A stretch of DNA of 64,000 nucleotides, taken from contig JAUCBJ010008553.1 of NCBI GenBank assembly GCA_032718475.1, forward strand, positions 1 to 64,000. The letters are read 5' to 3'. Positions within the stretch are counted from its first letter, which is position 1, and each line of letters opens with the position of its first letter. This document shows positions 8,366 to 38,500 of this stretch, piece after piece. The DNA is from Nemertoderma westbladi (taxonomy: Eukaryota; Animalia; Xenacoelomorpha). The translations under genes and the position numbers were made by a program. A model generated the notes under the pieces. It was not told where the DNA came from and did no database searches. It saw nothing but the letters and a program-made list of their open reading frames with translations.

Positions 8366-9563
8366 TGTAAAAGCTTTTGTGGGATAACTGATTCGTTTGC
8401 CTTGCTGGCCAGTTCCCCCCCGGTCGCTAGAATACTCTAAAAGGGATCTATAGGTAAAATAGTGCAAGCTACCAGCTTATTGGCTGATGGGCTGTACGAG
8501 AGTATCTGGGTTCTGTTCGATCGGCCAACCAGCTTAGGGAGGTTGCCTTAGCCCTGCTGTCCGTATCGGCCAATAGAATTTGAGTGGGCGTTGATGTTGA
8601 CCTATCCCAGAGCTACTGAACTGAATTTTCCTATCTCACTGCTCATCCTCTGTGTTGGACGGGAGCTTCGGGGAATAAGGGTAGTTGGTATCCTCGTATA
8701 GTCAGGTAGTCATATGATTTTATATGATTCTGTTGTTGTGTTCCCATTTTCGCCATAACACCGGCTTTTTGGGAAGAACTCTAGTAAAACTGCTTAAATT
8801 ATCGAAAGTATGACTGTTATCTAACTCAATCGACTTATCTGATCTAATTAACTCACTATTAATCATATTGTTTGTACTGTTATTTACCGTCAGTTATTAA
8901 TTGTATCTATTTGTTGATGGAAATATTGCTCTTTGGAGAATACGGATAAATCACCCAAAATTCCCAATTTTCTTGATACACTACAGGTTAGAGAGACGGG
9001 CTATATATAACAATTGCGATTTATATTAATGTGGTGTGTATTGAATCTAATGTTATTTAGCAGACCCTACATGAGTCAATTGCTGCTCTCTTTATGTGTG
9101 ATCAAATTTACTGACGGTCGGCAGAATAGTGTGTATGATTGTGATTGGTAACAAAGCATTTCCTAAAGAATGCGCCTTATACTTTAATCATAAGCAGTAT
9201 CGTTGCGTTTAGTATAAGTCCTAGTTCTGTTTAAATAGATAGAGCGCCACGTCCTAAAGGAACTGTTAATATTTCCCGAAAGCCAATAATATCTGTCAGA
9301 AATTAATTAATAACGATCAATCGAATAATACAATAGGTTTACACTGCAACCTTACACTGCAATAATAAAATTTAAGCAGCCGAATTCAGCCTCCCGGGTG
9401 TAGATCCATCGGGTGAATGATCGCGCATGGGCTGGCTTCGGGTAATGTTTTGTTTATTAGCATAAAATATTGTCGTATGCTAAAGGTGTTTTAATTAACT
9501 AAAAGACATATAAATTTTGGCAGGTTAAACTGCTAAAGGTCTTCAAAAGCGCGAACAATAACA
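8366..9563 (+). repeat. 5' LTR (1198 bp)
   Basis: Starts TGTAAAAGC, ends AATAACA, and matches 26095-27292 at a constant offset of 17729. Contains CCAAT-like boxes (~8478 on minus, ~8570), a TATA-like CTATATATAA (9001) and AATAAA (9364-9369). Confidence 0.95.
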
Positions 9564-9692
9564 GTTAATCTTCGTATTGCAGTGTAGGCATTAAATACAG
9601 TTTAATATTGTTCTGGTAAGAACTATAACAGTTAACGATCTTATTGCAGTAAGCAATAAGGTTGCAAAATACCGTAGTGACCGGTAAACCTG

Positions 9693-11496: not shown

Positions 11497-11870
11497 ATAC
11501 CGGTATTTACCATAGGCTTATTATATTTATTTCTATAAATTTGAGCTGAAATCATACCGGTACTCTGTACTTGATTCTAGTCCATAATTATACTTATATA
11601 TACTATAAGTGTAAGCTGTATACCGGTATTCACTATAGGCCTACTATATATTTATATATATTTGTGCTAAAATAATATACCGGTACTCTGTGACAAATCT
11701 AGTCCATAATTATACTTATATATACTATAAGTGTAAGCTGTATACCGGTATTCACTATAGGCCTACTATATATTTATATATATTTGTGCTAAAATAATAT
11801 ACCGGTACTCTGTGACAAATCTAGTCTGTAATAATACTTATATATATTATAAGCATACCGGTATTCTAAT
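11497..11870 (+). repeat. 122-bp AT-rich tandem repeat x2-3 just upstream of gag
   Basis: TCCATAATTATACTTATATATACTATAAG... occurs at 11581 and 11703, with degenerate flanking copies. Confidence 0.85.
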
Positions 11871-12001
11871 ATATTGTATATATATCACGTTACACTGAGT
11901 AACGGTATCGGTAATAAATCGCTAGGCTTGCGGTCATACTGAATTACCAGACTTGCTTTAACTGAAACTATAGTAGTAGACATTCAACTGTATAGCTAAA
12001 C

Positions 12002-15000
12002 ATGTCTGACACTCAGCAAAACCTGTCAGACAGTCTGATCGATACAACTATCTGTGACTCAGATAGGAGTGTGGAGCGATTAAGAAAGGAGTTCAGCTCA
12101 CCTCCTACTGCAAAAAAGGTCATCCCTCCAGTAGTATCAGACCCTAGGCTAATCCACCATAGGTCCATCATAGGTACTCGGGCACAGGTCAAACGGAACC
12201 AAGAGGCAGTTGTCCTATCGCAGCAACATCTTGGTCAAGAATCTACTTCCCAGCGACCCGATAGCTCCAGTAGTTCGGATACTATAGAGCTGACCCCCGA
12301 ACGCGGAGTGCAGATGGCTGCTACAGTCTACTCGGACCCCCTTCTTACCCTTCCTGCTGCAGTGCTAACTACTATATTCATTGCGGTAGAGGAACATCAA
12401 GCCGATTGGGCGAGGAATAAGCGAGCGACCCAAGATAATTATGCGGGATTCGCCAGGGAAGAATTGATGTCTATTGTCGAGTCACAATGGAACTTTCCCG
12501 GACTCGGACTCCCGTTGGATTTGTCCGAGGCTACTTGGGAAGATATACACAGGATGGGAGTGGCTAAAGATACAATGGATCCAGCTGTTTGGAAGAGGTC
12601 GGCAGCAGGATATGTGCAGGGATTCTTCGGCTCCTTGGAGCGATTGGAAGAACAACTGTTTCGACAACCTCAAGGACCTCAAGAGCAGGAAGAGCTGCTA
12701 TACCAAATACGCGAAAGAACCCTACGCATACGACTAATCCTCTCAGCCTTTGAGGAAACTTCCAAAAGAAGACAGGACACGTCGCTACAGGTTGCTGTCA
12801 AAACTTGGTTACATCGGGTAGATCTCAAAGTGCAGGAAACGGCTCAGTGGAAATCCCAGCTGGCTGAGAGATCACCCCATGAAGAACAAACTGATGTCAC
12901 CCTTTCTCAAGCGGAAAGCGAAGAGACCGCCGAGAAGCCGCGAACTAGAGACGCTATCGACATTTATTTGTCTGACTATCAGCGATTCCTAGGAGACGAA
13001 GAGTTGAGGAGACGGCTGTCTGGACTTTCCCCTAATAGTGAAGGAACTAAGCTTGTGTTGGACTCAATCGATGCGGAAATGTTAGCTGCAAACCAAGCTG
13101 AATGTGATGAAAAACTCCGCCTCACTAGAGTCCGAGAAGAACAAGTAAAGAAAGAATGGATAGAGAAAAGAAAGGTGGCAGCAGCAGCGGCGGCAGAAGC
13201 AGAAGCCGAAAGAAAGGCGGCAGAAGCAGAAGCCGAAAGAAAGTCGGCAAAAGCAGAAGCCGAAAGAAAGGCGGCAGAAGCAGAAGCAGAAGGAAAAGCA
13301 GCAGTAGCAGAAGCAGAAGCAGAAGCCGAAAGAAAGGCGGCAGAAGCAGAAGCAGAAAGAAAGGCAGCAGTGGCCGAAGCAGAACGTAGAGCTTCTGAGG
13401 AGACTATCCAATTGGAGTTGGAGAATCTGCAAGAGACGCAAGACAGTATAAATAAACAGTTTACTGCTAATCAAATGCAGATGATGAGAAAATCTACTCC
13501 CAAGCGCCAGGGATACACATCCTCGGAGGAAGGCGAGACTACCGATCCTGAAGGCGGAGGAAATAGATCTCATCTAAGTAGGCGTAGAAAAACATCTTAC
13601 CGTCGCAAATTGCCTGATTTGCCCCCAGCTGTTAGAAGACAGCTAGCTAGCACAGACTTGAGTAGTGTAGAACCTACAGCCCAAAGTATTAAGGTCAAAA
13701 GACTCCCTACAATAGTTGATGAGCCTGAAGTAATTAAGCCTGTCGTTCCCAAAGTCACTTCTGTGTTAGAGACCCCTGTACTTCCAGAGCTTAACTCTAA
13801 ATTCCCTTTACATAGTACTACACTGCCTGCACCCGGTGGAACAGTCCAAGAGAATATCCCTGTCCAGATAGCAGAGAGAGAAATCAAAAATATGTCTCCC
13901 GTCGTCCCGCTTCAGCCCGCTACTATGTTGGCGACTCCCGCTTCGGCGGTTGAGTGGGTGGAAGAGGGACGGCGGGGGATGAATCTCCTGCTAGGACAGA
14001 TGCAGGAGACTGTCCACCAACTTAAGGGAACAGTGAGGGAAGGTAGAGCAGAGTTGCAAGAAGTGCAGCAAAGTATCGCGCTAGAACGCGACAAATTAGT
14101 CAATATACAAAGGGGCATACCAATACCCCCTGTAACATTGTGTCAACCTGTTAGGTCTGAAGTATTACATGCGCAAGGTGTGGAGCCTACACGCATCTAT
14201 ACTGCTAGTGAAGTTGAAACTCCTATAGCAAACCCTATTAAGGGTGATTATAGACCTGTTATTAATGATATTCCCTATAGACCTGATAATGATCCGAGAA
14301 ATTTATATACCGATAATTCGATATTAAATAACACGATGGCCCAAGAAAGCTTTACGCGTCAGATGGCTAGAACAGAAGCCCGCCAAGCGGTCAAAGTGGG
14401 AGAGATCGTCAAATTCAATGGAGATGAGATGAAATGGTTACCTTTCAACGAATATTACAAAGATAGCATACAGAACTCTGTACTATCTAACGGAGAGAAA
14501 CTTAGATTCCTCATCAAGTGCTTGGAAGGACCTCCCAAGTTAATGGCGTTAAAGTTTATTGGACATCCAGATGGATTAAGACAAGTTTGGGATACACTAA
14601 ACATCAGGTATGGTAACAAGGATAACATAGCTAAGTATTTGTATGCAAAATTAGTAGCCCCCCGACACTTCCTTAGTAGCGGGATTATAGAGTTTTCCGA
14701 TGAAATTCAAGAGATCTGTAGACAACTGGACTGGTTAGGTAAGTCGCATGAATATCAGAGTTCCATGGTTATTGGAGCCGTAGTCTCTACTTTACCAAAG
14801 GGTGGAGTATGTACACGCTGGGACAAGAAAGTGTTGTACATGAATGAACAACAACGACGAAGTCCTACCATGGCTGATCTCATGTCTTTCTTAGATGGTG
14901 AAGTAAAACTACAACTCATCAAGCAGTCCAGAGAGAAAACATCAGAAAATAAGGTAAGTGAGAAACCCACTTCTAGGAGAAGAGTAACACCGGTGTGTTA

Positions 15001-16024
15001 CACTGACGACGGCGAAAGCCAAGCTTCCCAAGAAGTGGACAGCGGGAAAGACACAGACCGATCTTATTATGTTGACAAAACCTCAAAGGACGTAAGTAAA
15101 TACAAGGCTCGAAACGATAGGAGAGAACAAATTGCCAAGACCCCTCCTCAGTCTCCTAACAGAATGCACCGAAGAAAACCTGAAGAAAAAACGAGAGTGC
15201 ATCAAGTTAACCAAGGTAAAGTGAGTAACATCAAACCTAACTGTGCGCTGTGCGACGGGACACACCGTTTGAGTGCGTGTGCTGAATTTCTAAAGAAATC
15301 CCTTGTAGACAGACGTACAGTTGTGTGGGACAAGCGGTTATGCTATAATTGCCTCAGACCAGGACACCAACGGCGAAGCTGTTACTCCGACATAAAGTGT
15401 GCAAAGTGTGGCGCGAAACATCACATCTTGTTACACAGTGAGTTCGAACGAGACAAACAGAGTCAGGTAAGTGAGCCCGAACTACATGTCCAATTTAGTG
15501 ACGTAAATGACACTGATCAAGAGTCCGAGATGGAAGGATTCTATACTGACGAATTCTCCGACGCCAATGAATCCTGTTATCTAATAAACACCGCGGTGTA
15601 TCGAGCACTTACTTACGAAAGGGACATCAACGATGAGTTTCCCCAAACTACTTTCGCCAAACAACCATCTTGGAAAGCTCCAGCTTCCAACGTAGGAATC
15701 AGAGAATTTCCTGTAGTTCAGGTAAGAGTTCACGGTATTAACAAAAGCTACATAGTGAACACCCTACTTGACTCCGGCAGCACAGGAACATTCATTGATC
15801 AAGAACTAGCCGAAGATATCTTTGCTGGACAACCCAGGTTCCGGACTAAATTGAATATGTCAGGAATTATGCAGGTTTGGAAATCTACCCTAACGGCAGA
15901 TTACTATGTAGGTGTGTTGTCCACCCCCCAGGATAAGTTAGGAACACAAGGCATAAGGTCAGTAAAAATGGTGGCTATAAAGAACTTTGCTACTACTCAA
16001 GCAGACCTTTATAATTGGGACTAA
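12002..16024 (+). CDS. gag: Bel/Pao Gag plus most of the aspartic protease (1340 aa), with a long N-terminal extension
   Basis: DUF1759-like KFNGDEMKWLPF...LSNGEKLRFLIKCLEG. Knuckles CALCDGTHRLSAC, CYNCLRPGHQRRSC and CAKCGAKHHILLH. Protease motif LLDSGSTGTFI. EAEAERKAA charged helical repeats. Confidence 0.93.
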   Translation: MSDTQQNLSDSLIDTTICDSDRSVERLRKEFSSPPTAKKVIPPVVSDPRLIHHRSIIGTRAQVKRNQEAVVLSQQHLGQESTSQRPDSSSSSDTIELTPERGVQMAATVYSDPLLTLPAAVLTTIFIAVEEHQADWARNKRATQDNYAGFAREELMSIVESQWNFPGLGLPLDLSEATWEDIHRMGVAKDTMDPAVWKRSAAGYVQGFFGSLERLEEQLFRQPQGPQEQEELLYQIRERTLRIRLILSAFEETSKRRQDTSLQVAVKTWLHRVDLKVQETAQWKSQLAERSPHEEQTDVTLSQAESEETAEKPRTRDAIDIYLSDYQRFLGDEELRRRLSGLSPNSEGTKLVLDSIDAEMLAANQAECDEKLRLTRVREEQVKKEWIEKRKVAAAAAAEAEAERKAAEAEAERKSAKAEAERKAAEAEAEGKAAVAEAEAEAERKAAEAEAERKAAVAEAERRASEETIQLELENLQETQDSINKQFTANQMQMMRKSTPKRQGYTSSEEGETTDPEGGGNRSHLSRRRKTSYRRKLPDLPPAVRRQLASTDLSSVEPTAQSIKVKRLPTIVDEPEVIKPVVPKVTSVLETPVLPELNSKFPLHSTTLPAPGGTVQENIPVQIAEREIKNMSPVVPLQPATMLATPASAVEWVEEGRRGMNLLLGQMQETVHQLKGTVREGRAELQEVQQSIALERDKLVNIQRGIPIPPVTLCQPVRSEVLHAQGVEPTRIYTASEVETPIANPIKGDYRPVINDIPYRPDNDPRNLYTDNSILNNTMAQESFTRQMARTEARQAVKVGEIVKFNGDEMKWLPFNEYYKDSIQNSVLSNGEKLRFLIKCLEGPPKLMALKFIGHPDGLRQVWDTLNIRYGNKDNIAKYLYAKLVAPRHFLSSGIIEFSDEIQEICRQLDWLGKSHEYQSSMVIGAVVSTLPKGGVCTRWDKKVLYMNEQQRRSPTMADLMSFLDGEVKLQLIKQSREKTSENKVSEKPTSRRRVTPVCYTDDGESQASQEVDSGKDTDRSYYVDKTSKDVSKYKARNDRREQIAKTPPQSPNRMHRRKPEEKTRVHQVNQGKVSNIKPNCALCDGTHRLSACAEFLKKSLVDRRTVVWDKRLCYNCLRPGHQRRSCYSDIKCAKCGAKHHILLHSEFERDKQSQVSEPELHVQFSDVNDTDQESEMEGFYTDEFSDANESCYLINTAVYRALTYERDINDEFPQTTFAKQPSWKAPASNVGIREFPVVQVRVHGINKSYIVNTLLDSGSTGTFIDQELAEDIFAGQPRFRTKLNMSGIMQVWKSTLTADYYVGVLSTPQDKLGTQGIRSVKMVAIKNFATTQADLYNWD

Positions 16025-19000
16025 GATGAGAGCGTCCAACATCTTAAGATACCTCGATTCCAGACAGATTATCCTGGAGTGCAAATACTTATCGGCCAAA
16101 ACGCGCACGAGGCGCTCGAAACATTAGAGAAACGGCCTGCTCAACCACAACCACTGCAAACATATGCGGTAAGAACTAGAGTAGGTTGGTACTTTACTGG
16201 CCCTTCCCGTAGAACTCTCGAAGAGAGAATGCCACACGAACAAATACATCAAGTAAACGATTGGGAAGTGGAAAGCAGTGAGGTGGACGAACTAACTGAG
16301 GGAACGCCATACTCCTCAGATAATGACGACATCTACCAACTCTTCGAAGAAGAGAACACAATTGACCTACTTACAGAGAATCAGACTTGGAAAAACCAAA
16401 CGAACCTATGTCAACTGATTCGCCCAACGGAATCCATTATTTATAATGACGAACTTAATGACGAGGTAGAGCGCTACAACGCTAGAACTCGGGACGAACT
16501 CGCCGTACGATTCTTTACCCAAGAATTAGTAGAACCCAATTCATACGACAAAGCCCTGTCGATAGAAGAAGAAAGAGCCAAGCAAATCCAGGAAACAACC
16601 ACACGTTTTTTAAAAGATCAAGGTAGATATGAAATCGGACTACCCTTCCGAAAACGTGAACCCAGATTTATAAATAACAGACCCTTGGCTGAGAAAAGAA
16701 TCAATCAATTACATCGACGTCTTACGGCAAACGCTTCAGCTAAGGAAATGTACCAAACTCAGTTGAAGAAATTTATCACAAAGGGATATGCGGAGCGAGT
16801 ACCGGAAGGAACTCCAATAACTGAAAGGACTTATTATCTAACACATCATTACGTTCCCAAACCCGGTAAACCCCATGAAGTACGGGTCGTATTTGATGGC
16901 TCCGCCCTATATATGGGCCAATCCCTTAATTCCGAGTTGTTACCAGGACCCAACTTGCTCCAATCTTTGTTGGGAATACTTTTAAGATTAAGACAATATT
17001 CCATCGCGTTCGCTTCCGATATCGAAGGAATGTTCTTACAAGTCAAGGCGCTGGAGAGAGATAGAGACAGCCTGAGATTTCTGTGGTGGCCTGAAGGAGA
17101 CCTCAACCAGAAACCGGTGGAGTACTGGATGACCATCCAGGCTTTTGGGATCATATCTAGCCCTTCCAACGCCTGCTCCGTGGTGCGAACCACTGCGAAT
17201 GACAACCGAGACTCCTTCTCCAAAGAAGTGATAGACAACATAAAACGCAATATATACATGGACGACAGATTAAGGTCCCTTCCATCAGTAGAAGAAGCCA
17301 TAGCTGTCGCGAAAGGAACGGTAGAGTGTTTGAAAAGAGGTGGATTTCGGCTGACGAAATTCACTAGTAACTCCCGTGAGTTTCTGGAAGCCATACCGGT
17401 AGAGGATCGCGGAGCGAAAGACCTAGACTTAATAAAGGACGATCTTCCTGAAACCCAGACGCTAGGCTTGAAGTGGGACACTGAAAGAGACATCCTGTTT
17501 TTTCAGTTAAAACAGCGAGATAATCCAGTCCGGACCAAACGGATTTGTTTAAGTATCCTGAGCACTTATTTCGACCCATTGGGATTTATTAGCCCAGTTA
17601 TATTGATTGCTCGGAGTTTAGTACAACAGATGTGGCTTGAAAACCACTCGTGGGATGATCCGCTTAAGGGAGAACTGTTGAAGAAATGGATGAAATGGGA
17701 AGATTCTCTACCTGCCATCGAGAACTTTATAATTTCCCGTGCATATTTTGGACATGTTCTTCCGACGTATTCCTATCAACTCCATGTGTTTGGAGACGCC
17801 AGCGACATGGGAATAGGTATAGTAGCATATCTGCGAGTCGAAACTCCGGATGGGATCAAAGTCGCCTTGGTTACCTCTAAGGCACTGATTAACAACAAGT
17901 TAAAGGTTCCTCGAGCGGAGTTAAAAGCGGCTTTATACGCTACAGCCATCGGCCGGAACGTAACGGAACAAATCGATTACCCACTGGAGAAAACGGTTTA
18001 TTGGACCGACGCTTTACTCGTGTTGGAATATCTAACCAATGAAGTCTGTCAGTTCAGCGTTTTTGTTACGAACAGGGTAGCAATTATTCTTAGTCGCACA
18101 AAGATAGATCAATGGAGACATTGCCCTGGTACGATTAATCCAGCCGATATCGCCTCCAGGGGAGCAACTCCACAGGAACTGATAGATACTCCAGAGTGGT
18201 TGGGTGGACCCGACTTCCTGAGCAAGGAAGAGGACGAATGGCCTCCTCACCTTACTACGGCGGAAATTAGACAAGCCAAGGGAGCGGAGACCGTCAAACC
18301 TAAAACCCGGGCGAGTAAATCGAAGTTATTTAAACCGACTATCGATCTATCTGTATTACATGTTTCCGGAAACGATGATTTAGATCCACAATCCCTCGCT
18401 ATAAATAAATCTGTTGCGGAAATTCGAGATAGAGATTGGAAATCTGGAATACCAGACGTCTCGCAAGGAATCTCACCCCTGCTGCAGAGAGCGATGCATC
18501 ACTACAGTTCCTGGAATCGGCTCTGTAAAGCCGTCACATATTTAAAGAGATGCTTTCATCATCAATACTCCAGGGCGAAGACCACTAGTGATAACGCTCC
18601 ATTGACATCTGCGCAAGTTCATGTTATTAAAAACTTACCTAAATACAAAGTGTCTGACAGTTTTCTAAAGGAGAAAATTAGTCACCAGGAGCATGAAGAG
18701 ACTAATAAACAGATACTGAGACTCCTGCAATGCTATGAGGATTCCGAAAAGTATTTCCTGTTGTTGAGAAATCCGCAGATGCGCTTAAGGGATCGATTCT
18801 CTAGCACAATGATAGATGGATTAATACGTGTTGGAGGAAGGTTAACCAATGCACCCTTATCCTTTGACACTAAATTCCCCATACTCATTAGAAATCTTGA
18901 AGTACAAATCAAAATGATTGTAGATGTTCACAGTAAGCTTTATCATGCTGGAAGAGAACGAGTTCTTAGCGAAATTCGAACTCGCTATTATTTTGATAAA

Positions 19001-20140
19001 CCCCGTAGGGCTCTGAACCAAGTTCTTAGGAACTGCATACCCTGTAGGAAAGCATTCAGTAGGCCTTTAACACAGCGAGAGGCAGAATTACCTAGGGAAC
19101 GAGTAAGCTTCTATGAACCACCTTTTACTAATACTGGTGTAGATTTATTTGGCCCTATTGAAGTATATCGTGCGAGGACTATAGTCAAGAGATGGTGTGT
19201 CATCTTCGTGTGCATGACTTGCAGAGCCATCCATCTCGATATGGTGAACGATCTATCTACCAACAGTTTCGTCTTAAGTTTACGACGACAGATCGCTCGC
19301 TTCGGTACGAGTAATACCATGAGATCGGACAAGGGAACGAACTTCATTGGTGCCAACAACGAAATACAGGCTTACGTAAAGGACTGGAATCAAAGACAGG
19401 TGGATGACCAGCTAAGGATAACAGCGTCTAGCTGGACCTTCAACGCCGCCGACGCCCCTTGGTGGGGAGGAAGTTGGGAGAGATTAATTAGAAGTGTTAA
19501 GACCGCATTTCACTTTATAGTGCCATGCCGTGCGTATCTCACCGACGAACTTTTGCGGACGTTAATGGAGGAAATAGCTGCCTATCTCAACGAGAGACCG
19601 CTTATGCCAGTCTCATCGAGTCCCGATTCCCTGGAAGCGCTAACACCTGCGCACTTCCTACTGAAGAAACCGGTAGCCATGCTCCCACGATCGGAGATTG
19701 TCGACGGAGACGAATACTGCCGTCGAACTTGGCAACTTATGCAGTTGCTATCCCGTCGTTTCGCTGACCATTTCGAGAAACATTACCTGCCCACGCTACA
19801 ACTTCGAACTAAGTGGTTTGCGCAGCAGGAAAACGTCAGCGCCGGAGATATGGTACTTGTTGTAGATCCAGACCTCCCACGTAAACGGTGGCAGACAGGT
19901 CGTATCATCGAGACTCATATCTCGGAGGATGGTTTAGTGCGTTCAGTAGAACTCATCGTTATGCGGCGTAACTTCAAGAAGCCCGGTATAATCTTTGAGA
20001 CGCAACAACTCAATCGCCCAGTTGGTCGTTTATGTTTACTGGAAAGAGACAGAGAACTCTCTGGAAACTATGGAAGACAAGACACTCTTCCCACGACCAC
20101 CTCCCTAATTCCTCAAACATCTAGGGACTCCCAAACGTGA
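16025..20140 (+). CDS. pol: Bel/Pao Pol (protease C-terminus, RT, RNase H, integrase), in frame with gag after a single TAA
   Basis: RVVFDGSA, SDIEGMFLQV, LRFLWW and YMDD (RT). LHVFGDAS, PRAEL and NPADIASRG (RNaseH/A17). H..YH..CIPC, GVDLFGP, RSDKGTNF and WERLIRSVK (integrase). 16025-16078 reads DESVQHLKIPRFQTDYPG into VQILIG without a stop. Confidence 0.95.
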   Translation, partial: DESVQHLKIPRFQTDYPGVQILIGQNAHEALETLEKRPAQPQPLQTYAVRTRVGWYFTGPSRRTLEERMPHEQIHQVNDWEVESSEVDELTEGTPYSSDNDDIYQLFEEENTIDLLTENQTWKNQTNLCQLIRPTESIIYNDELNDEVERYNARTRDELAVRFFTQELVEPNSYDKALSIEEERAKQIQETTTRFLKDQGRYEIGLPFRKREPRFINNRPLAEKRINQLHRRLTANASAKEMYQTQLKKFITKGYAERVPEGTPITERTYYLTHHYVPKPGKPHEVRVVFDGSALYMGQSLNSELLPGPNLLQSLLGILLRLRQYSIAFASDIEGMFLQVKALERDRDSLRFLWWPEGDLNQKPVEYWMTIQAFGIISSPSNACSVVRTTANDNRDSFSKEVIDNIKRNIYMDDRLRSLPSVEEAIAVAKGTVECLKRGGFRLTKFTSNSREFLEAIPVEDRGAKDLDLIKDDLPETQTLGLKWDTERDILFFQLKQRDNPVRTKRICLSILSTYFDPLGFISPVILIARSLVQQMWLENHSWDDPLKGELLKKWMKWEDSLPAIENFIISRAYFGHVLPTYSYQLHVFGDASDMGIGIVAYLRVETPDGIKVALVTSKALINNKLKVPRAELKAALYATAIGRNVTEQIDYPLEKTVYWTDALLVLEYLTNEVCQFSVFVTNRVAIILSRTKIDQWRHCPGTINPADIASRGATPQELIDTPEWLGGPDFLSKEEDEWPPHLTTAEIRQAKGAETVKPKTRASKSKLFKPTIDLSVLHVSGNDDLDPQSLAINKSVAEIRDRDWKSGIPDVSQGISPLLQRAMHHYSSWNRLCKAVTYLKRCFHHQYSRAKTTSDNAPLTSAQVHVIKNLPKYKVSDSFLKEKISHQEHEETNKQILRLLQCYEDSEKYFLLLRNPQMRLRDRFSSTMIDGLIRVGGRLTNAPLSFDTKFPILIRNLEVQIKMIVDVHSKLYHAGRERVLSEIRTRYYFDKPRRALNQVLRNCIPCRKAFSRPLTQREAELPRERVSFYEPPFTNTGVDLFGPIEVYRARTIVKRWCVIFVCMTCRAIHLDMVNDLSTNSFVLSLRRQIARFGTSNTMRSDKGTNFIGANNEIQAYVKDWNQRQVDDQLRITASSWTFNAADAPWWGGSWERLIRSVKTAFHFIVPCRAYLTDELLRTLMEEIAAYLNERPLMPVSSSPDSLEALTPAHFLLKKPVAMLPRSEIVDGDEYCRRTWQLMQLLSRRFADHFEKHYLPTLQLRTKWFAQQENVSAGDMVLVVDPDLPRKRWQTGRIIETHISEDGLVRSVELIVMRRNFKKPGIIFETQQLNRPVGRLCLLERDRELSGNYGRQDTLPTTTSLIPQTSRDSQT

Positions 20141-21762
20141 TACGTCTGGAGTGGGTGTATGACTATGTTATTTATCTATTTTATTACATTTTATATGCGA
20201 ACTTTATTATGTACTTTATTATAATCGTTTTTATTCAATTTTTATTTAGTAGAATTTTATTTTAGGGATTATTTAGTAGATTAGTGCAATATATTAGTGT
20301 TTATTACGTACATAATTACTATAATATATATTTAGTGCGACGGCGAGAAATAATTATTTTTCTCTTCCCTTACTGTCCGTATCATATTATAAATACGTGA
20401 CTACAGTAAGATGAAATGTCCGTACTTCTTAAAGTACAATAAAGCCACTACTATATTCAAGTATTATTGGTAGGCAGAGTATTAGGAATGCAAAGTTCAG
20501 ATCCTTGTGTCTCGGCTAAACCAAGCTCTGGGTAGACCTTGGAAACGACTTGCCTCTTCACACTGACATTGCTTCGTGCGATATTGCTCTTCTACCTTAT
20601 AACAAATAATACATATAGTAGCGTGATGTCCCTCTAACAGTAGCGTAAATCGCAAATAAATCTGTTAAACTTTTTGACCATCTGTAATTCTAGTCGATTA
20701 AGATATCGTGGCACCCACCGATATACTTGAAAGACAAATTCTAGAATCAGTGGTTAACGTCCCCAGACAAGTTCTGGAATAAATCGGTGCTCATCCTAAA
20801 TATTAATTTAATATTTATTAAAATCTGTAAAATCCCGATCCTTTAAAATTTCTAGTCAATTAAGATATCGCAGTATTTACCGATATTCTTAGAAGGACTA
20901 TTTTATAGAATTAAGGATCCTGAGTTCCCAGACATGCTCTGGAATAAAATTTGTGTCAATTTAACTTCAAATAATAAAATTCACGGGAATAAATTTAAAT
21001 TCATATTCAAATGAATTTCATAAATTGTCATTTTGTGCAATTTATAACATTCCCAAAATTCCAGTAATTAATAGATCATGGGAGCGGAGATTCATATTGA
21101 GTGTACTAGAGTGCGAGAATCTCCAACATATAGTCAATAGCCGATAAAATTTATAAAATCATGCATAAAGAGGATATTGACAATTAAAGAATTACTATTA
21201 AATAACATCCCAGATCTGTATGCATGAGAATTTCCCTAATTCTACCGCTAGTTTTCCATAATGTCACCATGGCAACACCCACGCTAGAATTAGAAGCAAG
21301 TTAAAGGAACAATAAAAAGCTTGCCCCATTGCGTAGCATAAGAGTATACATAGCGCACTATTAGTATCCAAGGATACATAGTAATAACGTGACATTCTGG
21401 AAGACACTGACTAACGGACAAATGGCATGCATGTGTGCAGTAAGTAATGATTGTATGGAATTTGTGCGTTTATAGGTGAATGTTACTACTAAAGTGTGTT
21501 TACAGTAGCTAATCGCAATTGTAAAGTAGCCCTAACTCTACCGAGATAACCTCAAGTGGATTCAAGCCTTTGGGACGGACAGTGGTGGGACTTGTGCCGG
21601 TTATCGTTGTCGTGCTGTTGCTACATGTTGGCGTAAACACCGCGACGACGGTACATCGGCGCTGAGAAACCCACTGTCCGGGGGCAAAAGTCTAGTAGGC
21701 AGCGACGCCCGCTTGCCTAAAATATTAACTCATATTGATATTAATAAACTCAGATAGCAGAT

Positions 21763-24700
21763 ATGACGGAATTGATAGAAGATGACCTTGGTATCAGGGA
21801 GCGATATACTCTACCTTTACAAGCGTTTGTGGATAGCTTGATACGCGGTGAAGCCGATCCGACTATTACGGAGGACGATGGTCGTTATATCGAACCGCCG
21901 ATGTCCCAGGAACAACTTACGCGTGAATTGGACTATAGAAAATTCACCGCTCGCTATACGAATCGTAATGGTACGTATATGGACTTCTTAACTACCGGCC
22001 ATCCTACCGATTTACATGATACGGAAGATGTAGACACCGAAAGGGAAATGGTTTTATTTAAATATCATGCCCAGCGGAATCGTAATGATAAACCGAGAAT
22101 AGAACACGAGAACTCTATTCGCAACCTACTCGACAGAGAAAACGTTGAAGAACCCGATAAGCGCATCAACTTCAACGACTACTTGGAATTTTTGAGAGAA
22201 ACCTATCTCAATATTGCCAGTCAACAGAACCTAGAGACTCGATATCCTCAAGGTATACATCACGATCCCATGGTAGAACTCAAACGACTCTATTTCACCA
22301 TGATGTATCTTACCGCAGATCGTCCACTGCCTGTTGTCCCGGACAGCTTTGAACAAATGGAAGAGTATTGCAAAACTGGAGATCGATCACCCGCGTTTCC
22401 TCTGCAGGACGTACGTCTTTGGTATTATTGTGACTCATGTCCTAGACCTAACCAGCAATCGGAAAGACATAAACATCTGCGGAGACGTTGTGCTAAACAC
22501 AGTTTTACGCGTTATACTTACGGGAGTTTCGAGCGAAATCTGTTCGACGTATCCCCTACGATCGCCCGTCTAAAACGATCGCTAAATAAACCCATGATCA
22601 GAGTTCCGGAATACTCGGTCAGGCCTCCTCATTTCCCAGTGAGACCTCAAACTCTTGATCCTAACAGTATCACTGATCCTCCCGAGTTATACTCACTGTT
22701 CAAAGATTTGGTATTACCCGAGCAGTTAATCGGTGATGTTCCCTCGGTAGGTTCGTTAGATATTCGACCATCCTATCTAACCGGATTGGGACGCGGGCAT
22801 CTAACATCCCCATTTAATCCTTACAATCGGCCAGGATTAACTCCGATACAACCTGCCACGGAAGTCGAGGAGAGTGTCATCAGAAACGCTTTAGACGCCA
22901 TCCGACAGAAAATCGGAAAGGGAACACAGGATTTTCTAGAGAAACGTAAATTACAGCAGCAGGTCCAATCCGTGAAAGAGTTAGCCTTGCCGCAGTTTGA
23001 TAGAGAAATCCAAAACCTCGAAGAGGACATCAAGCTCGGACGTACGTATTCTCTACAGGAGTTTCTAGAAGAACGCTTACAGAAACAAGCGGAGGAAAAT
23101 CAACTAGAGGAGAAACATACGGAAATGGATGAGAGAGAAGAAGCCGCTTTAGCCCAACCCGAAGCTCAGATACTCATAACCGATCTCTACTCTAAAACCG
23201 TCCGTCATCCATCGATGGTTCCGCATTTCGGAGACAAACTCTTTGCAAAGATACAACCCCAACCGGTTGATATCAGCATAAGATCGCAAAATCTTATCGC
23301 TGACGCTCCTATGTTACAGCGTCCGCCAATCGAGGCCGCTCGAGTTGACGGTATACTCGTTGAACCTCCGGACAATCGAGCGGATCTTGTCCGTCGTATG
23401 GTACACGATGTCAACATACGCGCTAGACCTTTACAGAACTCTTTTTATGGAATTAAAGACCACCCTTATTACGTTAATCTGACTCAATATTATATGGTCA
23501 AACCAGAAGATCCGACGCATAATTTAAAGTTTCTACCACTGATAAATCCTCTGGACATTGTCGAACTCGAACAATTACAAAAACATCTGGATCAGTTAGT
23601 AAAGGTAAACTCATTTCGAAAACCATATAACGTTTCTCGAATAGAGAAGGATACAGAACCTCCTTATAATCTCGATGGATTTATTAAAACTCGATTAGTC
23701 CATTGGAATCTAGACGTATTATTCGAGGAGGAGAAAATACAAAGATATGGAAATGTGGAGACGTATACCACTCGATATATGAAGTATAGTGATCTCCCTG
23801 ACGCTAATCAATGCGCCACCTTGTGGCATCCAGTAGGGATGACCCTCGAGAACGCCACCAAAGAATGGAATGAAACTCTTAATATCGTTGAGATGTATGG
23901 CGTTGTTACTTACGATAACGAAGGTAGCGTTCCAATCGGAGAATTAGGAACTACGCGCATGATACACATACGCGGATTAGCTGGTTCCACTCACGTGTTT
24001 ACGCGAGCGTGTTCCGACGTGATCGATTATTCCTTTGAAACTCTCACCGAAACGCAAAAGAATCTCCGACATGGACAATTCGAACTCGCGCAGCGTTACG
24101 TCATTGACACCGAACGCAAACCGGCCATGGGTATCGATGGATCGATGTTACCCCAACCCGTTCTCGAGATGTTATTCAACGAAAGAATCATTAAAATCGG
24201 CTCAGCTGTTTACGGAGATCTCCAAAACGACTTTCAGAATATGGAAAATATCCCCTATCCTTTCGTGGATACTCAGCTGATAGCTCCTTGGGCCGAAGGC
24301 CGAGGTTTCTTCCGCACCATGTATGCTAATGCGTCTAGCGACATTACAAAGGTGCAACGAACTTCCATCGGACATCTTGCTTTTCAGGAATACGGATGGA
24401 ATTTCAAGGTTGGAAATCCCATCAACTATCAACAAGTATACGGAGACCATTATTCTCGATTATACTTTGACGGACCGTTGACCGCACCTGGCGCCGTGTA
24501 TAGCTTCATGAGTGTTCCACTCCGTCCCTCCTTAGCTATCTACACGATCTTCGAAAACACCGCACTTTCCAGTTGGCTAGCCGATGTGTGCAGTCGTACT
24601 ATACGCGCCCATCCATTAATCCTTGGGACCAAACTCGCTAAGCTAGATGAACATAATAAATTCATCCGCTTTGAATGTTTCCGACGATTTTTAACCCCGT

Positions 24701-26016
24701 TTCGCAACGTGGATAGCCAATTCAAAGACCGCGCTTTGACCAAGCTCAGCTTAAGAGACTCGGCTGCGGAGAAGTTAGATAGCGCTGGATTTGCTATTTT
24801 CAAAGACATTTGTATAATAAACCTGCACTCCTCTGTTATCCAAAGACCTCGAATCCCCACAGGTTATTCTGTCGTGGAAATTCAGACGGTAGGTCCACTT
24901 GAGGAGACGGCCATGCCTACCTCAACTATACAAGGGGAAGACGAACCCATATGTTTAGAATCTGAAGAGATTCAGCCCCCCACGTCTCGGAGTAGCGATA
25001 GCGACTACATATTGGAATGGTATCAAGGTCCACAGTGTCTTACTGCGTATGATTATCGCCATGCCAATTATGTTTCTCGACAACGTTGTCGGCTGTGCGC
25101 ATCGAGAGACCATATTACGTCTATGGACACCAACGATCTCTGTTCCTATTTCCACGAGCAACCGTCGATGGAAATCTATTGTGCATATTGTCGGCTTAAT
25201 AATTTGCACATTTTTGCTGTCTGCCCCCAATTTATGACTCAATGCCATCATTGTCAATTAAAAGGACACGCCAGCTTTGATTGTCCCTTTAATCATGATT
25301 TAGAGAGCGTAGACGAAATGATTGTACTACGTTATATCAGAGCTTGGGAAGCGAACGCTGATTTACATTGTGATTCACGCCATCGCTATTACCCTGGACG
25401 CGCTTACGAAGGAGTTTATGCGTTCCATCCTTATTTGTTTGCCTCCGTCGAGCAGAAATCACGCCTATCAAGTTATGAACTATTGAAGCGCGTTGGAGAA
25501 TGTATTTCAACTAAATATGTACACAAATTCCTCAGGAGCATTAATCCGAGTGACATCCATTCTTACAACTTAATAAACTTTATCCGTCAAGACCCTGCCT
25601 ATGGAGACTTATTTGTCAACTCACACCCCGAGTTACAGGAAGTATATCGACGGCCTTACGAGTACCGAGCCCGCGAACGCGAGTTGGAAAGAACCATTAA
25701 ACCAAGGAAGTTTCTAACTACCTATGGTCCACCCACGGCCCTCGTGCAGACCACTCGTACAGGACCCGTAAGAGCGGCTGTCTTGAAACGAGCTCTCAAA
25801 GCCGTTAGACCCCTCTCCCCGGACGTTGATGTCAATCAACCCGGTACTTCGACCGGCGGATATACCGATCGTAATCCCATACCTTCTGATGCAATCATAT
25901 TGCACCCTTCACCCAGGAGTTATAGCCCTCCTCGTAAAGTGGCTCGCCCCAAAGAGAAAAGGACTCTTGCTAGCTTTAAAAAACTGCGTAAACGCCGTCC
26001 GCGCAAGAAAGACTAA
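21763..26016 (+). CDS. ORF3, 1417 aa: DEDDy-like 3'-5' exonuclease domain + three CCHC-type zinc knuckles + basic C-terminal tail; not env
   Basis: Uninterrupted 4.2-kb ORF inside the LTRs. ExoI VVTYDNEG (D718/E720), LPQPVLEMLFNERIIKIGSAVYGD (D819), FVDTQLIA, SIGHLAFQEYG and an ExoIII-like PLRPSLAIYTIFE. CHHCQLKGHASFDC knuckle, ends KKLRKRRPRKKD. No signal peptide or TM segment seen. Confidence 0.85.
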   Translation: MTELIEDDLGIRERYTLPLQAFVDSLIRGEADPTITEDDGRYIEPPMSQEQLTRELDYRKFTARYTNRNGTYMDFLTTGHPTDLHDTEDVDTEREMVLFKYHAQRNRNDKPRIEHENSIRNLLDRENVEEPDKRINFNDYLEFLRETYLNIASQQNLETRYPQGIHHDPMVELKRLYFTMMYLTADRPLPVVPDSFEQMEEYCKTGDRSPAFPLQDVRLWYYCDSCPRPNQQSERHKHLRRRCAKHSFTRYTYGSFERNLFDVSPTIARLKRSLNKPMIRVPEYSVRPPHFPVRPQTLDPNSITDPPELYSLFKDLVLPEQLIGDVPSVGSLDIRPSYLTGLGRGHLTSPFNPYNRPGLTPIQPATEVEESVIRNALDAIRQKIGKGTQDFLEKRKLQQQVQSVKELALPQFDREIQNLEEDIKLGRTYSLQEFLEERLQKQAEENQLEEKHTEMDEREEAALAQPEAQILITDLYSKTVRHPSMVPHFGDKLFAKIQPQPVDISIRSQNLIADAPMLQRPPIEAARVDGILVEPPDNRADLVRRMVHDVNIRARPLQNSFYGIKDHPYYVNLTQYYMVKPEDPTHNLKFLPLINPLDIVELEQLQKHLDQLVKVNSFRKPYNVSRIEKDTEPPYNLDGFIKTRLVHWNLDVLFEEEKIQRYGNVETYTTRYMKYSDLPDANQCATLWHPVGMTLENATKEWNETLNIVEMYGVVTYDNEGSVPIGELGTTRMIHIRGLAGSTHVFTRACSDVIDYSFETLTETQKNLRHGQFELAQRYVIDTERKPAMGIDGSMLPQPVLEMLFNERIIKIGSAVYGDLQNDFQNMENIPYPFVDTQLIAPWAEGRGFFRTMYANASSDITKVQRTSIGHLAFQEYGWNFKVGNPINYQQVYGDHYSRLYFDGPLTAPGAVYSFMSVPLRPSLAIYTIFENTALSSWLADVCSRTIRAHPLILGTKLAKLDEHNKFIRFECFRRFLTPFRNVDSQFKDRALTKLSLRDSAAEKLDSAGFAIFKDICIINLHSSVIQRPRIPTGYSVVEIQTVGPLEETAMPTSTIQGEDEPICLESEEIQPPTSRSSDSDYILEWYQGPQCLTAYDYRHANYVSRQRCRLCASRDHITSMDTNDLCSYFHEQPSMEIYCAYCRLNNLHIFAVCPQFMTQCHHCQLKGHASFDCPFNHDLESVDEMIVLRYIRAWEANADLHCDSRHRYYPGRAYEGVYAFHPYLFASVEQKSRLSSYELLKRVGECISTKYVHKFLRSINPSDIHSYNLINFIRQDPAYGDLFVNSHPELQEVYRRPYEYRARERELERTIKPRKFLTTYGPPTALVQTTRTGPVRAAVLKRALKAVRPLSPDVDVNQPGTSTGGYTDRNPIPSDAIILHPSPRSYSPPRKVARPKEKRTLASFKKLRKRRPRKKD

Positions 26017-26086
26017 CTGTTTAGAGTATTTTTATATTTTAGAAACTGTGATTTTGTATATTTTATAGACTTAAATCCCATTTTCT

Positions 26087-26094
26087 GGGAGCGG
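26087..26094 (+). promoter_or_regulatory. Polypurine tract (plus-strand primer)
   Basis: GGGAGCGG lies immediately 5' of the TGT start of the 3' LTR. Confidence 0.7.
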
Positions 26095-27292
26095 TGTAAA
26101 AGCTTTTGTGGGATAACTGATTCGTTTGCCTTGCTGGCCAGTTCCCCCCCGGTCGCTAGAATACTCTAAAAGGGATCTATAGGTAAAATAGTGCAAGCTA
26201 CCAGCTTATTGGCTGATGGGCTGTACGAGAGTATCTGGGTTCTGTTCGATCGGCCAACCAGCTTAGGGAGGTTGCCTTAGCCCTGCTGTCCGTATCGGCC
26301 AATAGAATTTGAGTGGGCGTTGATTTTGACCTATCCCAGAGCTACTGAACTGAATTTTCCTATCTCACTGCTCATCCTCTGTGTTGGACGGGAGCTTCGG
26401 GGAATAAGGGTAGTTGGTATCCTCGTATAGTCAGGTAGTCATATGATTTTATATGATTCTGTTGTTGTGTTCCCATTTTCGCCATAACACCGGCTTTTTG
26501 GGAAGAACTCTAGTAAAACTGCTTAAATTATCGAAAGTATGACTGTTATCTAACTCAATCGACTTATCTGATCTAATTAACTCACTATTAATCATATTGT
26601 TTGTACTGTTATTTACCGTCAGTTATTAATTGTATCTATTTGTTGATGGAAATATTGCTCTTTGGAGAATACGGATAAATCACCCAAAATTCCCAATTTT
26701 CTTGATACACTACAGGTTAGAGAGACGGGCTATATATAACAATTGCGATTTATATTAATGTGGTGTGTATTGAATCTAATGTTATTTAGCAGACCCTACA
26801 TGAGTCAATTGCTGCTCTCTTTATGTGTGATCAAATTTACTGACGGTCGGCAGAATAGTGTGTATGATTGTGATTGGTAACAAAGCATTTCCTAAAGAAT
26901 GCGCCTTATACTTTAATCATAAGCAGTATCGTTGCGTTTAGTATAAGTCCTAGTTCTGTTTAAATAGATAGAGCGCCACGTCCTAAAGGAACTGTTAATA
27001 TTTCCCGAAAGCCAATAATATCTGTCAGAAATTAATTAATAACGATCAATCGAATAATACAATAGGTTTACACTGCAACCTTACACTGCAATAATAAAAT
27101 TTAAGCAGCCGAATTCAGCCTCCCGGGTGTAGATCCATCGGGTGAATGATCGCGCATGGGCTGGCTTCGGGTAATGTTTTGTTTATTAGCATAAAATATT
27201 GTCGTATGCTAAAGGTGTTTTAATTAACTAAAAGACATATAAATTTTGGCAGGTTAAACTGCTAAAGGTCTTCAAAAGCGCGAACAATAACA
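26095..27292 (+). repeat. 3' LTR (1198 bp)
   Basis: Same as the 5' LTR. By eye only one substitution was seen (G8596 vs T26325). Confidence 0.95.
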
Positions 27293-28329
27293 GCATAAAG
27301 TCTGGTATACTTCACATGGGGGTAACTGAAAAGTGAAATATAACGGCATAAAGTCTGGTATACTTCACCATTACTTTTGTTGCTAATTTAGTCTTAGAAA
27401 GTCTTTCTATATCACTAAAAGTTTGAAAGAAAGTATTTCGACAAAAAATATAATAATATTAAATAGTAGTGCATTTAATAATAAATGAACGTATAAATTA
27501 TACTTTCTTTTACTGTTTTTTTTTAATTTGATTGAGAAAAGGCAAAATTTCAGATAAAATTAGCTGCTATTAACTTAAAAACAAAACAAAACTAAATCTA
27601 GCTTAAAAATGATCTATGTAGGCCGACTATTTATTATTAAAAAGCTTTATTGTTAAACTCCAACTCCAGCCACTAAACTGTCCTTGAGTAAAGCTCTAAG
27701 TGAATATAATAGGCTGAATAACTCCAACCAATCAAAATAAGGCCCTTACACAGACAAACAATGCTGCAGTTAACAAGTATTATTGGTCTTTCCTGAATAG
27801 TGGCTATTGTGTACTTCATTTTTAATGTAAGTTAAGCCAAGATCTTTCTAATATTCGTTATTGTCGGTAGGCTGTTCCAAATTCCCCATTTATAGGGCCC
27901 AAATTTCCACGAGTATATTTATTCCCTTTATAAAGATAATAGGTGCCCATATTAGTGCAGTAGTATTGCCTCAACTGCAACGATGATATTGAAGTTAACA
28001 CATGCGGCATATGTAGGCCTTTCGAATATAATAAGGCCCATGTGAAGTATACCATACTGTTATATTTCACTTCCCAGTATACACCCATGTTAAGAATACA
28101 AGATATTCACTACAAACCCAGAAGGGATGAATCTAACAAAAACAATAAACGAATTAGTATCTGTACAGGTTGTAAGGAAGGAACAAAACACTTAATAAGG
28201 ATAAATTTAATAAAATACAAATTACATAGATATTATATAAATACATAACACATCATAATATATAAAATTCCTGGAAAAGTCAACCGAAAAATAAAGACCT
28301 GGTATTCTTCACAAGGGGGAATTGGCACT

Positions 28330-35500: not shown

Positions 35501-38500
35501 ATTCATCCCTTAGGACAGTAACTACCCGTTTTAGTTAAAAAAAAGTGATCTGGAGTTTGGCTTAGAGAGGGGAATGTAGAATTCAACCAATCAGCGATGA
35601 GCTTTTTTTCAGAGAAAGCAGGCTGCTCCAATCAGAGTTTATTTCCCTTTCAAGCTTTTCACTGTAATAATCTACTTTGTAAATAAATAAATAACATTGA
35701 CTGAAAAGTGAAAAGTGAAAACCAAGTATTCTTCATATTATTGGTGAAAATTTCGTAAATATAATAATGGGAATGATGATTGTTCATGTACTAGCATACT
35801 GGTGGGTTATTGTGGTAATTCTGCAATAATGAAGCAATGCAATGCTGCATTCAAAACAAGATTCGCCGGGACTCTCGGTATGAGTGCAAACAGTGCATTG
35901 GGAGTCCAGGGTTCTCTGCCTTGGTAAATGCTTTGCCGATTATCATAAATAGATCATATCATAGTAATAGTTCGATTATAACGGTACCATAAATAGACCA
36001 TGAAACATAATATATACGATATAGTTCAGAAAAATAAATATTTTTTTCGGGGGTGTAACAGGAGTGGATGAGTAAACGGGGGTGTAACAGGAGTGGAGGA
36101 GTAAAGGGGGTGTAACAGGAGTGGATGAGTATACGGGGGTGTAACAGGAGTGGAGGAGTAAACGGGGGTGTAACAGGAGTGGAGGAGTATACGGGGGTGT
36201 AACGGGAGTGGATGAGTAAACGTGAGTGTAACGGGAGTGGATGAGTAAACGGGGGTGTAACAGTAGTGGATGAGTAAACGGGGGTGTAACAGGAGTGGAT
36301 GAGTAAACGTGGGTGTAACAGGAGTGGATGAGTAAAGGGGGGTGTAACAGTAGTGGATGAGTAAACGGGGGTGTAACAGGAGTGGATGAGTAAACGGGGG
36401 TGTAACAGGAGTGGATGAGTATACGGGGGTGTAACAGGAGTGGATGAGTATACGGGGGTGTAACAGGAGTGGATGAGTATACGGGGGTGTAACAGGAGTG
36501 GATGAGTAAAGGGGGTGTAACAGGAGTGGATGAGTAAAGGGGGTGTAACAGGAGTGGATGAGTATACGGGGGTGTAACAGGAGTGGATGAGTATACGGGG
36601 GTGTAACAGGAGTGGATGAGTAAAGGGGGGTGTAACAGGAGTGGATGAGTATACGGGGGTGTAACAGGAGTGGATGAGTATACGGGGGTGTAACAGGAGT
36701 GGATGAGTATACGGGGGTGTAACAGGAGTGGATGAGTAAAGGGGGGTGTAACAGGAGTGGATGAGTATACGGGGGTGTAACAGGAGTGGATGAGTATACG
36801 GGGGTGTAACAGGAGTGGATGAGTAAAGGGGGTGTAACAGGAGTGGATGAGTAAAGGGGGTGTAACAGGAGTGGATGAGTATACGGGGGTGTAACAGGAG
36901 TGGATGAGTAAAGGGGGTGTAACAGGAGTGGATGAGTAAAGGGGGGTGTAACAGTAGTGGATGAGTAAACGGGGGTGTAACAGGAGTGGATGAGTAAACG
37001 GGGGTGTAACAGGAGTGGATGAGTATACGGGGGTGTAACAGTAGTGAATGAGTATACGGGGGTGTAACAGGAGTGGATGAGTATACGGGGGTGTAACAGG
37101 AGTGGATGAGTATACGGGGGTGTAACAGGAGTGGAGGAGTAAAGGGGGTGTAACAGGAGTGGATGAGTAAACGGGTGTGTAACAGGAGTGGATGAGTAAA
37201 CGTGGGTGTAACGGGAGTGGATGAGTAAAGGGGGTGTAACAGTAGTGGATGAGTAAACGGGGGTGTAACAGGAGTGGATGAGTAAAGGGGGTGTAACAGT
37301 AGTGGATGAGTAAACGGGGGTGTAACAGGAGTGGATGAGTAAACGGGGGTGTAATAGTAGTGGATGAGTAAAGGGGGTGTAATAGTAGTGGATGAGTATA
37401 CGGGGGTGTAACAGTAGTGGATGAGTAAAGGGGGTGTAACAGGAGTGGATGAGTAAAGGGGGTGTAACAGGAGTGGATGAGTATACGGGGGTGTAACAGG
37501 AGTGGATGAGTAAAGGGGGTGTAACAGGAGTGGATGAGTAAAGGGGGGTGTAACAGTAGTGGATGAGTAAACGGGGGTGTAACAGGAGTGGATGAGTAAA
37601 CGGGGGTGTAACAGGAGTGGATGAGTATACGGGGGTGTAACAGTAGTGGATGAGTATACGGGGGTGTAACAGGAGTGGATGAGTATACGGGGGTGTAACA
37701 GGAGTGGATGAGTATACGGGGGTGTAACAGGAGTGGATGAGTAAAGGGGGTGTAACAGTAGTGGATGAGTAAACGGGGGTGTAACAGGAGTGGATGAGTA
37801 AACGGGGGTGTAACAGGAGTGGATGAGTATACGGGGGTGTAACAGTAGTGGATGAGTATACGGGGGTGTAACAGGAGTGGATGAGTATACGGGGGTGTAA
37901 CAGGAGTGGATGAGTAAAGGGGGTGTAACAGTAGTGGATGAGTAAACGGGGGTGTAACAGGAGTGGATGAGTAAAGGGGGTGTAACAGTAGTGGATGAGT
38001 ATACGGGGGTGTAACAGGAGTGGATGAGTAAAGGGGGTGTAACAGTAGTGGATGAGTAAAGGGGGTGTAACAGTAGTGGATGAGTATACGGGGGTGTAAC
38101 AGTAGTGGATGAGTAAAGGGGGTGTAACAGTAGTGGATGAGTATACGGGGGTGTAACAGGAGTGGATGAGAAAAGGGGGTGTAACAGGAGTGGATGAGTA
38201 AACGGGGGTGTAACAGGAGTGGATGAGTAAAGGGGGTGTAACAGTAGTGGATGAGTAAAGGGGGTGTAACAGTAGTGGATGAGTATACGGGGGTGTAACA
38301 GTAGTGGATGAGTAAAGGGGGTGTAACAGGAGTGGATGAGTATACGGGGGTGTAACAGTAGTGGATGAGTAAAGGGGGTGTAACAGTAGTGGATGAGTAT
38401 ACGGGGGTGTAACAGTAGTGGATGAGTAAAGGGGGTGTAACAGGAGTGGATGAGTAAAGGGGGTGTAACAGGAGTGGATGAGAAAAGGGGGTGTAACAGG

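Follow-up and report, generated by a model that had tools for sequence, protein, structure and literature searches.

A predicted RNase D-like exonuclease with zinc knuckles encoded by the third gene of a Bel/Pao retrotransposon from Nemertoderma westbladi

A 64,000-nucleotide (nt) stretch of the Nemertoderma westbladi genome (contig JAUCBJ010008553.1 of assembly GCA_032718475.1, positions 1 to 64,000; hereafter 'the window') contains a young Bel/Pao long terminal repeat (LTR) retrotransposon whose third open reading frame (ORF3), located downstream of gag and pol, encodes a 1417-amino-acid (aa) protein that very probably contains a domain with an RNase D/PF01612-type fold, followed by three zinc knuckles. 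Rather than a one-off insertion, ORF3 is a gene that the diversified family carries regularly and with its frame conserved. Its predicted active site is a D-E-D-E variant, full in charge with one non-canonical ligand, as opposed to a strict DEDDy site. We tentatively favor the view that the protein would act as an RNA 3'-trimming enzyme on the element's own RNA or particles, and rank this reading ahead of a counter-defence, a non-catalytic adaptor and a complementary DNA (cDNA) exonuclease function. DEDDy ORF3s are known from rotifer elements; new here, against the literature searched, is the predicted exonuclease cargo in Bel/Pao, with its D-E-D-E site, triple knuckle and oversized element.

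Organization of the ORF3 protein

The following features were delineated within ORF3:

21763..26016, forward strand: ORF3, open reading frame of 1417 codons
21763..23830, forward strand: N-terminal ~690 aa, without a match of note in Pfam or in a PDB sequence search with this half; charged helical stretch at aa ~380-470
23845..24612, forward strand: predicted exonuclease domain of the RNase D-like DEDDy type (aa ~695-950), with two insertions and the residues D718, E720, D819, Y927 and E931
25087..25284, forward strand: three Cys/His zinc-knuckle motifs, aa 1109-1174 (zf-CCHC_3, E 0.009, below the cut-off; alignment to the triple knuckle of the homologue P0001)

As the initial annotation of this DNA had proposed, an intact frame of ~4.2 kb, fully open from 21763 to 26016, occupies the env position between pol (end 20140) and the polypurine tract (PPT), ending 70 nt before a purine run at 26087-26094. 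The chance of a 1417-codon open frame by base composition alone is ~1e-33, and guanine-plus-cytosine (GC) content by codon position follows that of gag and pol. The hydropathy maximum in a 19-residue window is 1.37, which speaks against any transmembrane helix, in agreement with that annotation (for the signal peptide, absence was assessed by eye alone); an env-like reading of ORF3 was rejected on this basis. All of the motifs quoted in the annotation, from VVTYDNEG to the KKLRK tail, were located where it had placed them: VVTYDNEG (D718, E720), VYGD (D819), FVDTQLIA (834), SIGHLA (868), AIY (925) and KKLRK (1406). The Cys/His cluster that it had described downstream of the exonuclease likewise resolves into three motifs, one atypical (C1109-x2-C-x4-H-x9-C), a second of the form C1140-x2-C-x5-H-x4-C, and a third that is canonical (C1161-x2-C-x4-H-x4-C). 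A fourth Cys/His motif, C223-x2-C-x9-HxH-x4-C, lies in the N-terminal half (window 22429-22491).

A single distant homologue shares this layout

A HMMER search with aa 541-1218 against 1.84 billion representatives yielded one match, here designated P0001, a 648-aa protein (E 4.9e-7, 30% identity). P0001 is a singleton from a 9,449-nt ENA contig, known here from the protein alone. It contains the motifs ILSIDVE, IKADL, VLDTQ, GLGHV and WTKPL-x6-Y-x3-E-N-T, and its exonuclease part leads into a disordered region, after which come three CCHC knuckles and, last, a basic tail, so that the order exonuclease, triple CCHC, basic tail is common to both proteins. The two align over the exonuclease part (E 3e-14) and over the knuckles (E 3e-4); none of 2000 shuffles exceeded the knuckle score, although Cys spacing inflates this test. 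The top ESM Atlas lead for P0001 is a Euglenozoan cluster of PF01612 plus zf-CCHC (0.86, a lead only).

Word-based protein searches, which covered near-length proteins, returned no matches for aa 560-1050 or aa 641-1040, and only P0001 itself when P0001 was the query. No loci related to the ORF3 domain or to P0001 were found among viral and metagenome contigs, and none related to the element's pol among viral contigs; plasmids yielded nothing.

Evidence for an RNase D-like fold

Three leads to the fold were obtained without supplying any known nuclease. Among 18,950 NCBIfam models, the best match for ORF3 was RNase D (TIGR01388, E 0.0069 for the full protein, aa 798-843), far under the curated cut-off. 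In a comparison of ESM Atlas features for aa 640-1040, PF01612 accounted for 24 of 30 matches (score 0.92); the top entry was an unnamed cluster (0.93), and the 159-160 shared features are typical of distant relatives. Finally, when 201 bacterial genomes were searched with a two-sequence profile of ORF3 and P0001, 36 gave matches at E<=0.1, the best of them at 7.9e-4; where the genomes had also been scanned with PF01612, 8 of 10 profile matches fell wholly within a PF01612 match, and an RNase D-family frame was present at 28 of the 30 loci fetched. A hidden Markov model (HMM) built from these bacterial exonucleases scores the ExoII stretch of ORF3 at E 4e-7 and that of P0001 at E 2e-6 (two targets). 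Together with the alignments described below, these results uphold the annotation of a DEDDy/RNase D-like domain, with a sequence homology to the PF01612 group that appears weak but repeated, under curated cut-offs.

Whereas a single-sequence AlphaFold model of the domain reached a predicted local distance difference test (pLDDT) score of 30.7, a model based on an alignment filled with bacterial exonucleases had a high-confidence core (pLDDT 82-93) and two low-confidence insertions, with a mean pLDDT of 59. This second model matched RNase D with a Z score of 13.3 (root-mean-square deviation 3.5, 163 aligned), and other matches included Pol I-type exonucleases and diDNases; Foldseek agreed. A structure search of the kind suggested in the initial annotation returned WRN and EXD1, as anticipated there, from a model that is biased by its family-filled alignment. 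A particular kinship to Mut-7/Nibbler and EXD1 did not emerge: Nibbler (Z 11.9), WRN (11.7), EXD1 (11.6), TbRND (11.5) and Egalitarian (Egl; 11.3) fall within one Z unit of one another, and the Mut-7/Nibbler and EXD1 matches (Z 11.2-11.9) lie below RNase D. The modeled structure names no donor subfamily.

Active-site residues

In a 48-row alignment of ORF3, P0001 and 46 bacterial exonucleases (46 of 47 selected; one PolA row was left out), D718, E720, K811, D819 and Y927 do not vary, and ExoI fell in the same register (D718/E720) in an independent MAFFT run. The ExoI D-x-E (D718, E720) and the ExoII Asp (D819) are thus present as annotated, and Y927 aligns as well; the ExoIII acid, in contrast, is a Glu (E931) in the Asp column, so that the expected Y-x3-D is replaced by Y927-x3-E931, as it is by Y-x3-E in P0001. 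Exonuclease activity is plausible on the strength of these residues.

Two alternative registers were considered. A second ExoI candidate, VIDYSFE (D755), was preferred by plain pairwise alignment and lacks the Glu; it was rejected because, with family sequences included, both MAFFT runs place D718/E720 at ExoI, after the expected helix. For ExoIII, the register PLTAPGAVY915-x3-S, which would correspond to a dead site, was set aside since the Y-x3-E-N-T of P0001 aligns with Y927-x3-E931-N-T.

ORF3 is conserved across a diversified family

Six of the seven public runs listed, from four studies, contain the stretch or part of it (none is recorded as RNA). When 8000-27800 was divided into 30 bins, all of them, ORF3 included, were covered in each of four runs, contrary to the possibility, raised in the initial annotation, that ORF3 is absent from other copies. 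Among the pieces listed, which represent a small, longest-first part of the total, 16 from ORF3 are 80-98% alike and differ by 713 substitutions and 5 gaps, while 12 from pol carry 571 substitutions and 13 gaps. The best-supported 12 of 320 insertions or deletions comprise 11 in non-coding sequence and one 3-nt insertion in gag, with none in ORF3 or pol; of 3,984 substitutions, the 40 listed include three synonymous and three non-synonymous changes in ORF3, versus 12 and 5 in pol. It is these diverged, nearly gap-free pieces, in conjunction with full bin coverage and a codon-position GC content like that of gag and pol, that identify ORF3 as a regular gene of the family. The same annotation had taken intactness of the window copy as a sign of selection; as its LTRs are 99.9% identical, that copy is uninformative, and the argument must be carried by the diverged family pieces instead.

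In run X3, single ORF3 contigs reach depths of 5,100-7,300, compared with 12.3 for a flanking contig, which suggests hundreds of family copies (depth is not itself a copy number). Deleted, non-autonomous derivatives of the family, abundant in the public runs, also spread: all four runs contain a form that skips 16330-18104 in pol. Further deletion joints in public runs include 18290-20005 (part of pol) and 26707/21544 (LTR joined to the region just upstream of ORF3).

The element and its surroundings

The retrotransposon spans 8366-27292 of the window (18,927 nt) and, outside ORF3, comprises:

8366..9563, forward strand: 5' LTR, TG...CA, 1198 nt, matching the 3' LTR; its start motif is found twice in the window
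12002..16024, forward strand: gag and first part of the protease, 1340 aa, closing at an in-frame stop (Pfam: DUF1759, E 7e-12; weak zf-CCHC; weak Asp protease)
16025..20140, forward strand: remaining pol (reverse transcriptase, RNase H, integrase), 1371 aa, same frame as gag (Peptidase_A17, E 5e-36; Integrase_H2C2, E 3e-7; DUF5641, E 6.5e-20)
20141..21762, forward strand: non-coding spacer between pol and ORF3, 1622 nt, with 23 ATG triplets
26087..26094, forward strand: polypurine tract-like run, read from the sequence, directly abutting the 3' LTR
26095..27292, forward strand: 3' LTR, 1198-nt TG...CA repeat matching the 5' LTR

Bel/Pao elements usually carry the domain set DUF1759, Peptidase_A17, Integrase_H2C2 and DUF5641. 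Pfam searches of the element's frames recovered, in order, DUF1759, Asp protease, Peptidase_A17, Integrase_H2C2 and DUF5641, confirming the Bel/Pao identity given in the initial annotation by gag and pol domains in the order protease (PR), reverse transcriptase (RT), RNase H (RH), integrase (IN); the RT motif YMDD is present. The 1198-nt LTRs and the purine run before the 3' LTR agree with the Belpaoviridae, for which LTRs of 0.2-1.2 kb and a PPT are specified. A single mismatch over 1202 aligned nt separates the LTRs, and the element is accordingly young.

The gag-pol frame of the window copy is interrupted by a single in-frame stop (16022-16024) inside the protease region; its site between the protease DSG motif and a later ILIG motif makes a lesion of this copy more probable than a read-through signal, and the copy is probably non-autonomous as a result. 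A 27-nt tandem repeat rich in Ala, Glu and Lys codons (AEAERKAAE-like coiled coil) lies in gag at 13189-13384 and differs in length among copies in the public runs. The leader preceding gag (9564-12001) is unusually long (2.4 kb), with internal tandem duplications of 38-, 288- and 122-nt periods, and no primer-binding site for arginine or glycine transfer RNA was recognized by eye downstream of 9563.

No target-site duplication was detected when the flanks 8361-8365 and 27293-27297 were compared, despite the 99.9% LTR identity; on the 5' side lies a 21-nt satellite with 392 copies, on the 3' side a repeat of another kind. This may stem from copies having recombined, from a rearrangement at a later time or from a join made in the assembly. 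Satellite arrays (periods 21, 29, 33, 14 and 34) dominate the window (1-8366, 36048-39700, 47715-54829, 56340-57757 and 60524-63998), and the long open frames within them are repeat artefacts.

Possible functions of ORF3

If ORF3 is an RNA-trimming enzyme, its D-E-D-E site would bind two metals and cut, and its substrate would be RNA, most likely the element's own RNA or ribonucleoprotein, by analogy with TbRND, in which the exonuclease trims the 3' end of an RNA bound by the CCHC fingers 5-9 nt from that end (in the available excerpts of PMC7797062). We favor this reading because a domain of RNase D type followed by CCHC fingers is best modeled by TbRND. The enzyme might serve in 3'-end maturation, or might remove fragments of RNA while particles assemble and reverse transcription proceeds. 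Given the 23 ATG triplets in the spacer, we infer a separate ORF3 transcript, generated from its own promoter or by splicing, and the product of such a separate gene could act in trans.

Several observations count against this interpretation. Pfam PF01612 does not match ORF3, PDB sequence searches returned no exonuclease, and HMM searches score ORF3 over the ExoII stretch only; the fold matches of the model, whose alignment was filled with exonucleases, attest to compatibility and are not independent proof. The Asp-to-Glu change at ExoIII could weaken or abolish catalysis. The six ORF3 substitutions listed are too few to demonstrate purifying selection on amino acids, and run X5 contains, in abundance, a form from which 22126-24934, and with it the entire exonuclease, is missing, so copies spread without the domain in cis.

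An alternative that we consider unlikely, if still a serious contender, is that ORF3 protects the family from silencing, trimming or sequestering host PIWI-interacting RNA (piRNA) or small interfering RNA (siRNA) precursors or guides in imitation of Nibbler, Mut-7 or EXD1. The fold is common to Nibbler and EXD1, a separate gene could act in trans, the family is apparently high-copy (the X3 depths), and the large N-terminal half without assignment could bind host factors; RNase D, however, scores highest, with WRN, TbRND and Egl tied, so no special closeness to piRNA nucleases is apparent, and a literature search on piRNA suppression by an exonuclease encoded in an element returned no paper. 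More doubtful is a broader proposal, that ORF3 and P0001 represent an ancient and so far undescribed family of D-E-D-E exonuclease and triple-knuckle proteins borne by retroelements and used by Bel/Pao elements to trim or soak up piRNA and siRNA guides. If true, a small-RNA counter-defence nuclease would also explain the high copy number of an oversized 19-kb element.

Also unlikely, and ranked behind counter-silencing, is a pseudo-nuclease in which the fold is kept while the Asp-to-Glu change and the insertions have turned it into an adaptor that binds RNA, comparable to Egalitarian or EXD1, for instance one that transports the element's RNA into the germ line or to sites of assembly. The ExoIII Glu, the two large insertions in the domain and the presence of Egl and EXD1 among the tied structural matches fit this idea, as do the inactive DEDD derivatives retaining RNA binding that are mentioned in the available excerpts of PMC5408684. 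Against it, the Tyr and all four acidic positions persist in two proteins of only ~30% identity, probably more than a dead site usually keeps.

A DNA exonuclease of the WRN or proofreading type, trimming ends or flaps of the cDNA as it is reverse-transcribed or integrated, is improbable: the top structural matches do include the exonuclease domains of WRN and Pol I (Z 11.7-12.9) and a very long element may favor aid in cDNA synthesis, but the CCHC knuckles and the RNase D sequence signal point to RNA, and ORF3 is not fused to pol. It is very improbable that ORF3, as a gene captured recently from the host or a foreign source, is a neutral passenger of no benefit to the element; the uninformative intactness of the very young window copy and the deletion forms without the exonuclease domain would allow it, yet pieces down to 80% identity remain nearly gap-free, the intronless ORF3 has a codon-position GC content like that of gag and pol, and no close relative turned up among the 1.84 billion representatives.

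Comparison with known systems

No exonuclease ORF, or exonuclease and knuckle ORF, was found for Bel/Pao in the literature searched, in keeping with the initial annotation; Repbase, GyDB, most subscription journals and supplements lay outside that search. The available part of a survey of 7,861 elements gives an upper bound of 15 kb and does not contain the word exonuclease (PMC3118150), nor do the available parts of PMC2774666 and PMC12440569. Belpaoviridae measure 4.2-10 kb and have at most an env-like third gene (PMC8742986, ICTV profile). Like Semotivirus members such as Tas, the element is arranged LTR-gag-pol(PR-RT-RH-IN)-third gene-PPT-LTR, with LTRs at the top of the stated range; unlike them, it extends over 18.9 kb, almost twice the size range stated for Bel/Pao, and its third gene would encode a soluble nuclease-fold protein instead of an env-like one (PMC8742986).

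Cellular Nibbler/Mut-7, EXD1, EXD2, WRN exonuclease, Egalitarian and Rrp6 share fold and motif order with the predicted ORF3 domain at 9-17% identity, and none stands out as donor; by Pfam, ORF3 has no HRDC match and lacks the known partner domains of cellular DEDDy proteins. TbRND (PDB 7c42) likewise combines an RNase D-type exonuclease, a linker and several CCHC fingers (Z 11.5 to the ORF3 model) but, according to the excerpts of PMC7797062, belongs to the cell as a mitochondrial enzyme 375 aa long, whose four fingers are canonical and whose DEDD site is full; nothing was found to indicate that the two exonuclease-CCHC fusions have a common descent.

The closest precedent is found among rotifer retroelements. 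The Juno and Vesta LTR elements are Gypsy-like. The rotifer DEDDy ORF3s cited in the initial annotation are indeed described: in the available excerpts of PMC5408684, Juno1/2 and Vesta2/5 LTR elements and Athena/Terminon retroelements carry a DEDDy-exonuclease ORF3 with the motif DEED, an account repeated in excerpts of PMC5718144 and PMC6431247. These ORF3s did not turn up in our word-based or HMMER protein searches, none of which was aimed at them. If ORF3 is an exonuclease, such cargo, so far described for Gypsy-like and Penelope-like elements of rotifers, would extend to a third superfamily of retrotransposons unrelated to those two, and the repeated gain of one nuclease type suggests a shared unsolved step of retroelements, either RNA 3'-end handling or escape from small RNAs, for which ORF3, intact and from a recently active family, offers a clean protein for testing. 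As described in those excerpts, the rotifer proteins resemble ORF3 in being RNase D-like DEDDy exonucleases encoded by a non-env third ORF downstream of pol, with acids retained and with function in both cases read from sequence; compared by description only, ORF3 differs in residing in a Bel/Pao element, in its D-E-D-E as opposed to DEED site, and in its 1417-aa length, triple CCHC cluster and 690-aa N-terminal part.

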